A stretch of 64,000 nucleotides of DNA from sequence record PZ347775.1. One strand, written 5' to 3'. The DNA comes from a phage. The notes beneath the pieces are model-generated. The model saw nothing but the letters and a program-made list of their open reading frames with translations. It had not been told where the DNA came from and ran no database searches. The first letter of the stretch is position 1. Each line of letters begins with the position of its first letter. The position numbers were made by a program, and so were the translations under genes. Of this stretch, positions 35,465-44,919 are shown one piece after another.

Positions 35465-35938
35465 TTATTTGAATGATTTGACGTACTGAATAGAGCCTTT
35501 GCTATTCACGAAAGCGATTTTACCATTTTTATTATACATGGTAGCAGTACGCTGATAGCCATAAGTTTGCTTACCAGATTGATAACCAACTAATGCAAAA
35601 TTATCTTCACCCATTTTATTCTGTTTAGCACGAATGCGTTCATGCCCATGCGCCATAAGAACCTTAGCATCACCAGTTGCAATGGATCTACGAGTTTTTT
35701 CATCTTCAACTGTATTAACAAAGTCGTCAAATGAATCAAATTTAGCATGGGATTTATTATACAGTTTTCCATCTACTGCATAATTGTATCCTTGTACATC
35801 CATCTCAACTTCTGTACCATCATCTAATACAGCAGTGATTTTTTGACCTTTTTTAAATTTCAAAAGATCAGTAAAAGATTCAGCAATAATTTGAGAATTA
35901 ATAGCTGCTTCAGTAATAAATTCTTGATATGTTTTCAT
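35465..35938 (-). CDS. internal-protein-like capsid-targeted protein (N-terminal CTS MKTYQEFITEA)
   Basis: 157 aa beginning with the conserved capsid targeting sequence of T4 internal proteins. Confidence 0.65.
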   Translation of the reverse strand: MKTYQEFITEAAINSQIIAESFTDLLKFKKGQKITAVLDDGTEVEMDVQGYNYAVDGKLYNKSHAKFDSFDDFVNTVEDEKTRRSIATGDAKVLMAHGHERIRAKQNKMGEDNFALVGYQSGKQTYGYQRTATMYNKNGKIAFVNSKGSIQYVKSFK

Positions 35939-35954
35939 GTGTATCCTTTAATTT

Positions 35955-36272
35955 TTATTCTTTAGGGAAGTTTTTAGAATATGCATCATAAAGCTTATTT
36001 CCAATACGGCGGAAAACTCTAGCCGCAAAACGATTTTCTGGGTTTTTAATCATGATTTGCATCATATAAGTACCCGCGTCAGAAAGAGCTTCTTCATAGT
36101 ACCCGTTAATTTCTTTAAGAGTCCTACGTTTACCACCAGGACCATCAACAGTGATTTTCCATTTACCTGTAGAAGTGCGACTTGGCGGCTCAACTTGTTC
36201 AATCCAGATATAACCGCCTTCTACACGTTGTCCTTGGGCAGATTCTGCAATAAATTCTTTAAACGTTTTCAT
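35955..36272 (-). CDS. internal-protein-like capsid-targeted protein (CTS MKTFKEFIAES)
   Basis: 105 aa with CTS-like N-terminus, adjacent to e as are T4 ipII/ipIII. Confidence 0.65.
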   Translation of the reverse strand: MKTFKEFIAESAQGQRVEGGYIWIEQVEPPSRTSTGKWKITVDGPGGKRRTLKEINGYYEEALSDAGTYMMQIMIKNPENRFAARVFRRIGNKLYDAYSKNFPKE

Positions 36273-40039: not shown

Positions 40040-40372
40040 TTAATTTTTCCAACTTAACAACTTGTAGTGTCCTTCATTCATACGTGGTTTATCCCAAGAA
40101 ATACTAATATATGATTCACTGTCAATAGAAGTCGCCGGGTTTTTCTCTACCGTAAGACCTTCACTTTCCAGCCATTCAATAGTATTTGCGCATAAATCTG
40201 AAGAACACCTCATCGGAAACCGGCAAGATTTTTCACCTTTAGCTGCAGTGTTATACATCTTTTCTAAAATACGCTTTTGCACGTTTTTAAAAATAGTTTC
40301 AGCAGATTCTTCAGATTTTTTATTCAGTTCAATATAAAGACTCATAACATTCTTCTCATTAATAGGGCTCAT
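40040..40372 (-). CDS. hypothetical protein
   Basis: 110 aa ORF. Confidence 0.45.
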   Translation of the reverse strand: MSPINEKNVMSLYIELNKKSEESAETIFKNVQKRILEKMYNTAAKGEKSCRFPMRCSSDLCANTIEWLESEGLTVEKNPATSIDSESYISISWDKPRMNEGHYKLLSWKN

Positions 40373-40400: not shown

Positions 40401-40727
40401 TTATTTCATATTATTGAAATATTCTTCTGCGATTTCGTCGTTATCATGGTAAACTTTAGAAGACAGTTTAACATAACCTTCAGCAGTGAACATGTTAATC
40501 ACAACCTTTACAGTATACCACTGACCATCTTCATTACCCATTACTGCATAGGTTTCAAACATCGGATGGTCAGGACCGATAACTTTAATATCATTCACTG
40601 TACGACCGAAATCTTCTGAAACGCATTTCATAAAGAAGTTGAACAGTTCGCCGTAATTATCCATTTTATTCTCCAAGTTGTTTTCTGTATCAGTAGTTGA
40701 TAGTTGTATAGTACCACGGAAAAACAT
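40401..40727 (-). CDS. hypothetical protein
   Basis: 108 aa ORF. Confidence 0.45.
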   Translation of the reverse strand: MFFRGTIQLSTTDTENNLENKMDNYGELFNFFMKCVSEDFGRTVNDIKVIGPDHPMFETYAVMGNEDGQWYTVKVVINMFTAEGYVKLSSKVYHDNDEIAEEYFNNMK

Positions 40728-40874
40728 GGATGTAAACAGTTTTGTGAAAAAATTTTAAAAAGTTTTAGGGAATTCTAGGGAAGGGATGGGCAATTAAAGG
40801 ATAGGATAATATATTATAAAGGGTATAAACTAAATGATGCCTAGAGAGGCGCGGAAAGGCCTAGATACCAAAAA

Positions 40875-40896
40875 GCCCCAACCTTTTGGTCGGGGT
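40875..40896 (-). terminator. hairpin plus U-run terminator (repeat copy A)
   Basis: CCCCGACC-AAAA-GGUUGGGG then CUUUU on minus-strand RNA, 3' of the IP-like gene. Confidence 0.5.
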
Positions 40897-40904
40897 TAAG
40901 AATG

Positions 40905-41378
40905 TTATTTGATTTGTTTAGCAGACCAAATGCGGTCTTTAATAATTTTTTGGATGTCTTCAACATACTCAAGAGAGTGAACATGTGGATTATCTTTGAA
41001 ACTATAGGCACGGGCTAACTTTTGGCCTTCGGTTTTGATTACTAAAAGCTCTTTAAGGATAGCTTCATACTTAGCGATAATTCCTTTAACAATATTTTTT
41101 TCTTGTGTAGCTTTAGGATCTGCTTTAGGAGCAGGTTTACCCGAAGCCTTTGCAAAAGCAGCACCAGTAGCAACTAAACTTTTCCAGGCCATACTAACCG
41201 CATTTCCCGTAAATCCTTCGGCTTTCATATCACGAGCAAATTGGAATCGTGATTCATCGGAAGCATCTTTATAGGAATATTTACCCGCGGCAATGGCAGC
41301 TTTTGCAACAGCTTGAATTTCAGTGCTAGATGCTTCATTTAACACCGCTTCATTTAAAAATTGAGCATATGATTTCAT
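40905..41378 (-). CDS. internal-protein-like capsid-targeted protein (CTS-like MKSYAQFLNEA)
   Basis: 157 aa, Ala/Lys-rich, CTS-like N-terminus; flanked by two near-identical hairpins. Confidence 0.55.
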   Translation of the reverse strand: MKSYAQFLNEAVLNEASSTEIQAVAKAAIAAGKYSYKDASDESRFQFARDMKAEGFTGNAVSMAWKSLVATGAAFAKASGKPAPKADPKATQEKNIVKGIIAKYEAILKELLVIKTEGQKLARAYSFKDNPHVHSLEYVEDIQKIIKDRIWSAKQIK

Positions 41379-41429
41379 CTTATTTCCTGTTTTAATTCGT
41401 GGTTTTAATATACTTATTTATACTAAAAA

Positions 41430-41451
41430 GCCCCAACCTTTCGGTCGGGGC
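41430..41451 (-). terminator. hairpin plus U-run terminator (repeat copy B)
   Basis: Near-identical to copy A (two transitions). Confidence 0.5.
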
Positions 41452-41459
41452 TAAGCCTT

Positions 41460-41760
41460 GCGGCAACCTTGTCGGGGTTCCACCTGCTAAGGCAAGTGTT
41501 TGTACGAAACGCCGGGATTCGAACCCGGTTATTAAGCAGTTGACGCTACTTAATATTTTTAAAAGGCCATATCTCGACCATATCCGAACGTTCCGTCAAA
41601 AACGCTACTCGGCTTACGGCAAAGATATTTCCTCGAATCGATAATTCTGTGCGCCGTTTCTGCTGTGATGTAAGGGGATATTAATAAATCATAAAGATTT
41701 ATTAAGACCAGTCCTTACACAGGGAACATCAGTCCGACGACTTACCGGTAGCGACCCGGT
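41460..41760 (-). ncRNA. candidate stable RNA region with tRNA-like T-arm (possible counterpart of T4 species 1/2 RNAs); boundaries uncertain
   Basis: No ORF of 60 aa or more; contains ccgggttcgaatcccgg (perfect T-stem-loop consensus on minus strand) and further hairpins; T4 has small stable RNAs in its tRNA region. Confidence 0.3.
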
Positions 41761-41763
41761 TTC

Positions 41764-42114
41764 TTAATATTCTTTTAAAGCATCAATCTGTTCACGACGT
41801 TTACGCCATAAATCAATTGCTTCATACGCAGATTCAGCATTTCGAATTGGACGGCATTTATATAAAGACTCGTGATTTTGATATTGCGTAGATAACGTAA
41901 TTTTATCTAAAAGGTCTTTACGTTCAAAGTATTCGTAACCATCTAAGCCAAATGAACGATTTTTGAGAAATTGCCAATGACCATATTCGTTTTCGACATA
42001 AACATAATCCGCGTGTTGATAAAGCAAATTAATTACACGTTCAGAAATAACAGTGTCATTGTGATTAAAATAAAATGTTAAATCATGAACTACTAAATAA
42101 ACATTACCTTTCAT
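41764..42114 (-). CDS. hypothetical protein
   Basis: 116 aa ORF immediately downstream of the tRNA cluster. Confidence 0.45.
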   Translation of the reverse strand: MKGNVYLVVHDLTFYFNHNDTVISERVINLLYQHADYVYVENEYGHWQFLKNRSFGLDGYEYFERKDLLDKITLSTQYQNHESLYKCRPIRNAESAYEAIDLWRKRREQIDALKEY

Positions 42115-43539: not shown

Positions 43540-43944
43540 TTAACCTTTATCAACAATAGTGTGAGTATGGACATTTACAATTTGCCACCAATCGAAACTA
43601 TCGCCAAATCGTTTTGATTTATTGTCTTCAATAATTTGACGTAATTCATCTTCTGTTTCAGCATACGCAATCAAATCATCATATCCACCGCAAGGATAAT
43701 AATTATCGCCTGCAAACAAAAGAAAATTTACTTTAGATGGGTCTACATAATAATGCTCTTTAGGATATTTAGTTCCTTTCCAATCAGTTACTTCAACATA
43801 ACGGTAAGAAAATCCATTTTTACTTTCAACCCAACTCCACGCTTCAAAAGGAGTATTAAAAACTCTATCAGGTATTAAATTACCTTCAAAATGAGAAGGA
43901 TTTGCATAATCCCCAGCATAAACATAATATTCGTTAATATTCAT
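43540..43944 (-). CDS. hypothetical protein
   Basis: 134 aa ORF. Confidence 0.5.
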   Translation of the reverse strand: MNINEYYVYAGDYANPSHFEGNLIPDRVFNTPFEAWSWVESKNGFSYRYVEVTDWKGTKYPKEHYYVDPSKVNFLLFAGDNYYPCGGYDDLIAYAETEDELRQIIEDNKSKRFGDSFDWWQIVNVHTHTIVDKG

Positions 43945-44130: not shown

Positions 44131-44198
44131 TTTATTCTCCTCAGTAGTTGATAGGGTAATAATATCACTACCCCATCTAAAAGTAAACGGTTTATAAA

Positions 44199-44507
44199 CT
44201 ATTTTATTCCGCGTGATGCAATTGTGTTCTGCCGTTTAACACCAGTTTGTTTAAAGTCATGATTGTCGATTTGATCGGTACGAGCAACACCGAATGATGA
44301 TTTAATCTTAGCTTTAGATCCTTTAGTTATAGAAATAAACATCTCGGAAGCCCCTTTCTTAAAGTCCGAGGCGATTACTTCAACGCCGTTCTTAGCAAGT
44401 GACCTCAGAATTGCCTCCGCGTACTCATCATCAAGACTCGCCTGAGTATTAATAACGAATGTCTTTGGTGCAGTCGCTTCATTGATAAATTCTTGATATG
44501 TTTTCAT
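44199..44507 (-). CDS. internal-protein-like capsid-targeted protein (ipI locus; ORF track to 44519; CTS MKTYQEFINEA from internal Met)
   Basis: CTS motif 4 codons into the ORF; position upstream of 57B matches the T4 ipI locus. Confidence 0.6.
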   Translation of the reverse strand: MKTYQEFINEATAPKTFVINTQASLDDEYAEAILRSLAKNGVEVIASDFKKGASEMFISITKGSKAKIKSSFGVARTDQIDNHDFKQTGVKRQNTIASRGIK

Positions 44508-44574
44508 TTTGATTTCCATTTAGTTTTGTTTTGATAGGGTAATAGTATCACAACTAAACCACCGTGTAAACAAT

Positions 44575-44847
44575 TTATTTTAAATAAATTGCATATTTTT
44601 TATAACCAGCCGTCTCGTGACGCAGACCTTTTTCATTAGCAAAGCGTTCAATATTATTAATTTGATTCTGATCAAGTTCTGAAATATCAAATACAAAAAA
44701 GTTTCGTTTATTTCCTAACGTTACATGATTCGTCAAATCAATGTTATAAAGATGATTTATATTATCAATCATAGTCTTAACAGATTTGCTAATTTTTACT
44801 TCTTCATTAAGAGCAGATTCAACGATAAACTCTTTGAAAGTTTTCAT
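44575..44847 (-). CDS. internal-protein-like capsid-targeted protein (CTS MKTFKEFIVES)
   Basis: 90 aa with CTS N-terminus. Confidence 0.6.
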   Translation of the reverse strand: MKTFKEFIVESALNEEVKISKSVKTMIDNINHLYNIDLTNHVTLGNKRNFFVFDISELDQNQINNIERFANEKGLRHETAGYKKYAIYLK

Positions 44848-44919
44848 TTTATTTTCCTAATTAATTTTGATGAGGTAATAGTATCACTACCTCATCAACG
44901 TGTAAACAACTTTGTGAAA

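Follow-up and report, generated by a model that had tools for sequence, protein, structure and literature searches.

The stretch of phage DNA analysed here, 64,000 nucleotides (nt) of sequence record PZ347775.1, is called the window below, and all positions refer to it. It contains a small gene, designated gene X, which is bracketed by two copies of a hairpin sequence and lies just beyond the end of a tRNA operon. This region shares 99.8% identity with Escherichia phage ECO07P3 and 93-96% with many Tequatrovirus genomes, e.g., AR1, RB18, wV7 and HY01. Comparison with annotated AR1 and T4 gave the order, in the direction of transcription, tRNA cluster, a 116-amino-acid (aa) open reading frame (ORF), rnaD, rnaC, the gene X cassette, e.8, e.7 and e.6, and the genes around gene X are all on the minus strand. 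The Rfam scan detected tRNAs only; rnaC and rnaD are absent from Rfam, and they were therefore placed by alignment to the T4 annotation. In a preliminary description of this DNA, gene X had been presented as an internal-protein-like gene starting with MKSYAQFLNEA and lying apart from the other internal-protein (IP) loci. The ORF is present and encodes 157 aa. Its separate position was also confirmed: since the gene order puts X between rnaC and e.8, it is at neither of the two classical IP loci, which are located in the window at 35465-36272 (the ipIII/ipII side) and 44199-44847 (the ipI side).

The two flanks of about 30 bp that had been described as near-identical correspond to 28-nt strings at 40870-40897 and 41425-41452, with two mismatches between them. 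No third copy of the string was detected in the 64-kb window at three or fewer mismatches, and 100 shuffles of the sequence gave no match. A repeat search of the window extended the direct repeat to 36 nt, of which 33 are identical. The start-to-start spacing of the two copies is 555 nt, and the identity takes in the unpaired flanks CTTA and GTAT, beyond the stems. As had been proposed, each copy forms a hairpin followed by a U-run on the minus-strand transcript: both were called terminator-like, and both fold in this way as RNA. The upstream copy, T(A), gave a 10-bp stem with a GAAA loop and a U5 tail (-24.9 kcal/mol, z = -5.2), and the downstream copy, T(A'), an 8-bp stem with an AAAA loop (-17.3 kcal/mol, z = -2.2). 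Both have the form of an intrinsic (Rho-independent) terminator, that is, a GC-rich hairpin with a U-run directly behind it, located where a transcription unit ends. The upstream hairpin is 50 nt past rnaC, and the downstream hairpin starts 9 nt past the stop codon of gene X. GC-rich stems with GNRA-like loops are frequent in intrinsic terminators, and two unrelated terminators could resemble each other by convergence or by chance. The probability of this is practically negligible, however, given the match at 33 positions that includes the unpaired flanks, the blank result of the shuffles, and the full identity of the two hairpin copies in AR1, and this explanation was rejected.

The upstream copy is identical to the T4 hairpin at 24 of 24 aligned positions. 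In the entry for the T4 tRNA region (X03016.1), that hairpin, located 52 nt past species 1 RNA, is labelled 'pot. stem-loop structure; pot. terminator'. Because of this identity, the upstream hairpin is taken, on sequence grounds, as the intrinsic terminator of the tRNA/rnaD/rnaC operon. It is thus the same element as the terminator of T4 tRNA subcluster II. In T4 this terminator is single and the upstream region of e.8 is directly next to it, whereas in the window it is duplicated around the inserted gene.

A sequence matching the T4-type late promoter consensus, TATAAATA, follows the U-run of the upstream copy, 37 nt upstream of the gene X ATG. It was found at the same offset in all of the 10 Tequatrovirus X-bearing loci examined, and also in Klebsiella phage KpV477 and Mosigvirus JS09, and in the record of phage fPS-90 the site is annotated as a predicted late promoter. 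On the other side of the gene, the early-type promoter of e.8 is located about 130 nt beyond the downstream hairpin, and a predicted early promoter is annotated at this site in the same fPS-90 record. The interval between the repeats is therefore predicted to be a complete and insulated late transcription unit, because an upstream hairpin, a late promoter, a ribosome-binding site, an ORF and a downstream hairpin follow one another and are succeeded by a separate promoter for e.8. The features are listed in Table 1.

Table 1. Features of the rnaC-e.8 region of the window
Feature	Position	Strand	Remarks
tRNA cluster	43152-42131	-	tRNA search
rnaD (species 2 RNA) homologue	41649..41764	-	aligns to T4 rnaD positions 2-116 of 119, 103 matches
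rnaC (species 1 RNA) homologue, last stable RNA of the tRNA operon	41503..41641	-	136/139 identical to T4 rnaC
Upstream repeat copy, T(A)	41420..41455	.	repeat search and pattern search
Predicted terminator of the tRNA/rnaD/rnaC unit	41425..41452	-	stem 41452-41443 / 41438-41429, loop GAAA 41442-41439, U-run 41428-41425
T4-type late promoter consensus TATAAATA	41415..41422	-	first three bases inside the repeat; directly after the upstream U-run
Putative ribosome-binding region acAGGAaata, upstream of the gene X ATG	41381..41390	-	read from the sequence
Gene X	40905..41378	-	157 aa, phrog_2280; basic mature part, predicted all-helical with two domains and a Pro/Lys/Ala linker
Leader MKSYAQFLNE, codons 1-10	41349..41378	-	capsid-targeting-like, L-x-E site of gp21 type
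Downstream repeat copy, T(A')	40865..40900	.	repeat search and pattern search
Predicted terminator of gene X	40870..40895	-	stem 40895-40888 / 40883-40876, loop AAAA, then C, U5 (40874-40870)
Early-type promoter of e.8 (TTTACA-17-TACTAT with TG)	40708..40736	-	promoter call; downstream bound of the cassette array
e.8 homologue, conserved downstream neighbour	40401..40664	-	phrog_2678; T4 annotation; 96-99% identical across Tequatrovirus loci

Relatives that lack gene X and keep a single repeat were found, among them T4, T6, RB6 and PST. The empty site of T4 consists of the rnaC trailer, one hairpin and the upstream region of e.8; the left flank of this hairpin is the flank of the downstream copy in the window, and its right flank is that of the upstream copy. 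In some phages, a second, paralogous cassette (Y, 187-188 aa) is located downstream of X. In the loci that were fetched, the order was always rnaC, T(A), the X cassette (late promoter, X and T(A')), the Y cassette (Y and a different hairpin, T(B)) and e.8. An anchor scan of IMG/VR gave six loci, and the census was therefore performed on the GenBank phage collection (~680 genomes), using 98-nt junction-specific probes at a coverage of at least 80%. The junction of the empty site, from rnaC through the hairpin to the region upstream of e.8, was present in 83 records. The junction from X through the hairpin to the same region was present in at most 357, or about 280 after discounting cross-matches from Y-bearing records. 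The hairpin joined X to Y in 129 records and rnaC to Y in 46. These numbers are consistent with a tblastn search, in which X was found in 512 records and Y in 165, each at one place per record. Of the approximately 680 T-even-type genomes sequenced, some 400 carry X.

The gene and its flanks are thus not uniform among relatives: the interval is empty or holds X, Y, or both X and Y, and JS09 carries another gene, Z. All four combinations of X and Y exist although only a hairpin separates the two cassettes. Since these are adjacent presence/absence characters, the four combinations imply recombination, or repeated gain and loss, at the hairpin. Three of the four haplotypes occur among four phages that were isolated on a single host strain (ECO07P1-P4). 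Moreover, the insertion or deletion of X always comprises exactly one repeat unit plus X, in Y-plus and Y-minus backgrounds alike. No movement of X or Y between the rnaC-e.8 locus and the classical IP loci was seen, each gene having a single tblastn place per record. The two neighbours evolve differently. Y has at least 95% protein identity in 164 of the 165 records, including Mosigvirus PhAPEC2 (97.9%), while X, unlike Y, falls into several divergent classes with 75-100% identity, and about 50% in Klebsiella phages.

A generic terminator dispersed over many unrelated positions was considered as a further explanation of the repeats, and was rejected. A 33-nt hairpin probe matched 684 phage records at 1127 places, with one to two (rarely three) copies per genome and one copy each in T4, T2 and PST. 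Every copy whose position was examined is at the rnaC-e.8 locus, and the totals are as expected if each X-bearing genome has one extra copy. A loose search of the window for GCCCC...GGGGC detected nothing besides the two repeat copies. Partial BLAST alignments end or start within the repeat, and the same boundary is seen between genera. When VIPECOOM01 (Tequatrovirus) was compared with PhAPEC2, the identity was 97-100% through rnaD and rnaC; from T(A) onward, in the 5' half of X, it was only 52-62%, and in Y, after T(A'), it was again 92-100%.

The repeats also vary together within a lineage. The variant GCCCCTTCCGAAAGGTTGGGGCT is common to both X-flanking copies of PhAPEC2, and the stem variant is CCCCTTCC in both of these copies and CCCCGACC in both Tequatrovirus copies. 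Judged by these variants, the two X-flanking copies co-vary within Mosigvirus, i.e., they appear to be in concerted evolution. One phage has a pairing-preserving stem variant, AGCCCCAGCC, in its upstream copy, and other phages have it in the downstream one. In JS09, the junction of T(A) and TATAAATA is retained and is followed by Z (MYTFNEFLAE..., phrog_2280), a third divergent member of the family. In KpV477, a terminator is followed by agTATAAATA and by a gene starting with MKFKEFLAEA. Klebsiella phage KP01 has a 177-aa version of this X-family gene (P0011), compared with which the KpV477 gene (2495-2731 of the fetched locus) contains a premature TAA; its annotation shows two small ORFs. The KpV477 version is likely a pseudogene or the result of a sequencing error. 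In the Gaprivervirus VR7 (2500-2560 of the fetched locus), the rnaC terminator with the CCCCTTCC stem is kept, and an early-type promoter and a gene without a capsid-targeting sequence (CTS) come directly after it. The terminator therefore predates the cassette in Gaprivervirus, or is independent of it.

We consider it likely that the segment between the repeats is a self-contained, swappable late-gene cassette at the end of the tRNA/rnaD/rnaC operon, which is exchanged through the repeats and whose product is probably injected. According to this scheme, the upstream hairpin would end the tRNA operon, and the late promoter, the ribosome-binding site, gene X and the second terminator copy would follow it. 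We infer that the promoter and the terminators are active, in which case the downstream copy would insulate X from the early-transcribed e.8 unit. The 36-nt terminator copies could double as short homology patches. Recombination between them would remove one repeat and X (555 bp) and leave the T4-type empty site, and the reverse reaction, or a crossover in the conserved flanks in a mixed infection, would bring in a cassette or swap the cargo. A second cassette of the same family, such as Y, could follow X.

Cassette exchange by homologous recombination between the repeats had been suggested in the preliminary description, and the comparative patterns described above support it. Several points weigh against this reading, however. 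No recombination event was observed, and the patterns would also fit crossovers in the long conserved flanks. A repeat of 36 bp is short for efficient homologous recombination in T4. When the window was compared with SP21535, within the genus, the limits of the divergent block were past the leader codons and ahead of the stop codon, and not at the hairpins; the promoter, the leader codons and the terminators are 96-100% identical, and the mature coding part 50-90%. Since the divergent block is the mature coding part, allele replacement would use the whole conserved frame, and not the hairpin alone. Y has no T(A) repeat downstream but ends in T(B), which shares only GGGCTTTTT and the downstream flank. 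The KpV477 gene is in the same place between two unrelated hairpins, and thus the repeat is not required for a gene at this site. X at the rnaC-e.8 site is probably old and may be ancestral, with the T4-type empty site as the derived state. As for the promoter, the 8-mer TATAAATA by itself is about as frequent as expected by chance in the AT-rich window (seven minus-strand copies), and its weight as a late promoter comes from its position and conservation.

Some of these points would be expected if the repeats were terminators only. In that case, the cassette would have arrived once and brought or copied a terminator, the haplotypes would have arisen by ordinary homologous recombination in the flanks in mixed infections, together with rare illegitimate deletions, and the repeat would be a by-product rather than the exchange site. 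The flanks (e.8 and rnaC/rnaD) are indeed long and 94-100% identical among phages, and the allele boundaries inside gene X, the end of Y without a T(A) repeat and the KpV477 gene without repeated hairpins are all compatible with this explanation. We nevertheless regard it as unlikely. It is opposed by the indel of exactly one repeat unit plus X in both backgrounds, by the four X/Y combinations with only a hairpin between the cassettes, by the co-variation of the copies within a lineage and the occurrence of one stem variant in either copy, and by the sharp switch of identity at T(A) between genera.

The cassette could also conceivably come and go through a SegB- or SegD-type homing endonuclease from the tRNA region, which would act by co-conversion of the flanks and not through the repeats. 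Marker exclusion driven by seg genes is established in the tRNA region, and seg genes are located within about 1-2 kb in T4, AR1, PST and fPS-90. Against this, there is no seg gene in the tRNA cluster of the window, and the haplotype does not go with the presence of seg: T4 and PST have segB and the empty site, and fPS-90 has a homing endonuclease and both X and Y. Co-conversion would also leave the repeat-exact joints unexplained. Homing-endonuclease drive as the main cause is thus very improbable, and it was rejected because the haplotypes do not track seg and the joints are repeat-exact.

The injection of the product, which forms part of the cassette reading, concerns the N-terminus of X. 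In the CTS of IPIII, residues 4 and 7 serve targeting and residues 8 and 10 processing (PMC9026906). The leader of gene X has Y4, F7, L8 and E10, i.e., all of the four functionally mapped positions of the T4 leader, and for comparison, the four canonical IP-locus ORFs of the window have leaders of the MKTYQEFIAE type. A scan of the six-frame translation of the window with the leader pattern detected five ORFs only, gene X and the four at the two canonical IP loci, against about 0.03 matches expected by chance (a rough, composition-based estimate). The leader is kept in homologues of only 38-42% identity (Klebsiella, MKFKEFLAEA; Yersinia, MLEYSEFLKEL), and also in paralogues whose mature parts are below BLAST alignment (Y, MKTYAEFLTEA; Z, MYTFNEFLAET). 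Its form is M-x-x-[YF]-x-E-F-L-x-E in X, Y, Z and the Yersinia homologue, and the Klebsiella version, MKFKEFLAE, is one residue shorter. Y, Z and the Klebsiella and Yersinia homologues are all full-length members of phrog_2280. The mature X protein has an isoelectric point of 9.5, and is basic like the proteins of the four canonical IP-locus ORFs.

The motif L-x-E occurs in X at residues 8-10 and again at residues 13-15. At 41332-41356 (codons 8-16 of X), a 15-nt tandem duplication (GCTTCATTTA twice, 15 nt apart) doubles the predicted cleavage site (FLNEA-VLNEA); some homologues (SP21535, Mosigvirus and Klebsiella) have a single copy.

Because its first ten residues resemble the T4 CTS, we propose that X is probably carried into the prohead, cut by gp21 on the C-terminal side of Glu10 (or Glu15), and then injected along with the DNA. 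The leader, the late-promoter consensus and the basic charge are what suggest the status of an internal protein. Alternatively, X may not be packaged or injected but may act in the cytoplasm late in infection, the leader being a relic or a family-specific N-terminus. Several findings speak for this alternative and against packaging. The only family matched by X is phrog_2280, of unknown function, and X matches no IP family in PHROGs, Pfam or NCBIfam, while three of the four canonical IP-locus ORFs of the window match PHROG families annotated as internal head or virion protein. X is also outside the places to which the literature confines internal-protein genes, which are said to be absent outside two loci (PMC2839356) or to occupy "two distinct loci" (PMC12373910). 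It is annotated as 'hypothetical protein' in every record sampled (spread samples of the 512 records and 14 protein clusters), and no virion proteomics covering X was found in the literature, of which our coverage was incomplete.

The predicted structure adds no analogue. AlphaFold2 predicted X to be helical throughout (pLDDT 75): three helices form the N-terminal part, and a Pro/Lys/Ala linker joins them to a helical hairpin at the C-terminus. A Foldseek search of the model against BFVD and PDB gave no meaningful match, and a sequence search of PDB was also empty. Since no informative structural neighbour was obtained, no function can be assigned to X from the fold. Pfam and NCBIfam scans of X, Y and the neighbours gave nothing usable, and a search of 5.8 billion proteins gave only 14 clusters, each of T4-like phage origin and either unnamed or called 'hypothetical'. 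A cytoplasmic X is still less probable in our judgement than a packaged one. The four mapped leader positions are kept. The leader is conserved in X, Y, Z and the Yersinia and Klebsiella proteins despite the divergence of their mature parts, and the five pattern matches, four of them at IP loci, far exceed the chance expectation. The late-promoter consensus is conserved across three genera, and the mature protein is basic like other internal proteins. If X is packaged as we propose, the locus contradicts the confinement of internal-protein genes to two loci.

Cassettes of this kind have been described in T-even phages. According to Repoila et al. (1994, EMBO J 13:4181), as cited in PMC2839356, PMC4122927 and PMC12373910, the polymorphic IP loci are shuffled via conserved flanking regulatory sequences. 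They contain non-essential genes that share only the CTS leader of ~10 residues, and the number and identity of the genes vary among close relatives; the borders are conserved regulatory sequences, which were proposed as recombination linkers. The linker at these loci is an early promoter with a weak AT-rich stem-loop, whereas the X locus has, as its linker, a GC-rich intrinsic terminator with a late promoter behind it. The cargo of the X locus, unlike that of the IP loci, is one divergent family, phrog_2280, which was never annotated as IP. In the window itself, three copies of a 48-nt repeat containing an early promoter (69-81% identical) are located around the two CTS genes of the ipI locus at 44146-44912. 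This is the classical Repoila-type arrangement, in contrast to the terminator repeat at gene X.

A closer parallel is the promoter-early stem-loop (PeSL) and promoter-middle stem-loop (PmSL) cassettes, described in RB49/phi1, PST/T4 and nt-1/KVP40 (Arbiol 2010, PMC2839356; Comeau 2014, PMC4122927). Recombination between conserved regulatory linkers is the shuffling mechanism given for T4-type phages in these papers. As at the X locus, a terminator stem-loop with a GGGG...CCCC-type stem is joined to a promoter, flanks single accessory ORFs, and is found at the joints where close relatives differ by an insertion, a deletion or a replacement. PeSL and PmSL cassettes were proposed to be excised between two tandem copies, and we make the same proposal for the X locus. 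The excised mini-circles associated with PeSLs would have a predicted counterpart of 555 bp at the X locus. The differences are in the promoter and the distribution. The stem-loop of a PeSL is directly upstream of a strong sigma-70-like early promoter, while the upstream copy at the X locus is followed by the late promoter TATAAATA; PeSLs exist in many dispersed copies in hyperplastic regions, while the X hairpin has one to two (rarely three) copies per genome in the 684 records, all at one locus where the position was examined. Because of the late-type promoter and the confinement to one locus, the X locus works like the PeSL systems but is not a PeSL by definition. The X cassette can also be compared with morons, which, according to Hendrix et al. 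(2000) as cited in PMC2839356, are thought to insert without conserved flanking homology. Both consist of one accessory gene that lies between two transcription units and has a promoter and a terminator of its own. The X cassette, unlike morons, has repeat-exact joints and is flanked by repeats of a resident element.

The X locus thus adds a new example to an established type of exchangeable phage gene cassette, the principle of which has been published (Repoila 1994; PeSLs, Arbiol 2010), and for this reason we regard it as a useful lead and not as a surprise. A third locus of CTS-leader genes with terminator/late-promoter linkers appears not to have been labelled before: no ORF names and no earlier description of the X locus as an IP locus were found in the literature, within our incomplete coverage of it. 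The two-slot array, with four haplotypes and a 36-nt repeat, provides a compact natural test bed for regulatory repeats as recombination linkers. T4 Ip1, Ip2 and Ip3 each disable a different GmrSD-type restriction enzyme (PMC12373910), and unrecognised genes with a CTS leader are therefore direct candidates for injected anti-defence proteins. By the same logic, X, Y and Z qualify as candidates; they are widespread and unannotated. As a tentative extension, which seems to us possible but not the likelier outcome, rnaC-e.8 could be a third injected-protein locus in Tequatrovirus, Mosigvirus and Jiaodavirus, holding one to two fast-diverging phrog_2280 genes (X, Y, Z) with a capsid-targeting leader. 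These would be shuffled via terminator/late-promoter linkers, the late-promoter counterpart of the PeSL, and their products would be new injected counter-defence proteins, e.g., further inhibitors of type IV (GmrSD-like) restriction.

Other rearrangements were noticed in and around the region. A 94-aa protein encoded on a 2898-bp metagenomic contig (P0014) has an N-terminal part like the trna.3-like protein of the window (43540-43944), and its last 30 residues are identical to the C-terminus of X. This chimeric protein therefore implies that some phage has lost the entire tRNA/rnaC region by deletion. The 116-aa ORF (phrog_3355; 41764-42114, minus strand) is located between tRNA-Arg and rnaD, where in T4 tRNA-Arg directly abuts rnaD. 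It is also present in AR1, R5505 and VIPECOOM01, and represents a further indel of the tRNA region. At the e.7 position (40040-40372, minus strand), the DNA is 97% identical to a gene of Mosigvirus PhAPEC2 (RB69ORF146c type), and the ORF is only about 70% identical to e.7 of the other Tequatrovirus loci fetched, forming a cross-genus mosaic patch beside the cassette array.

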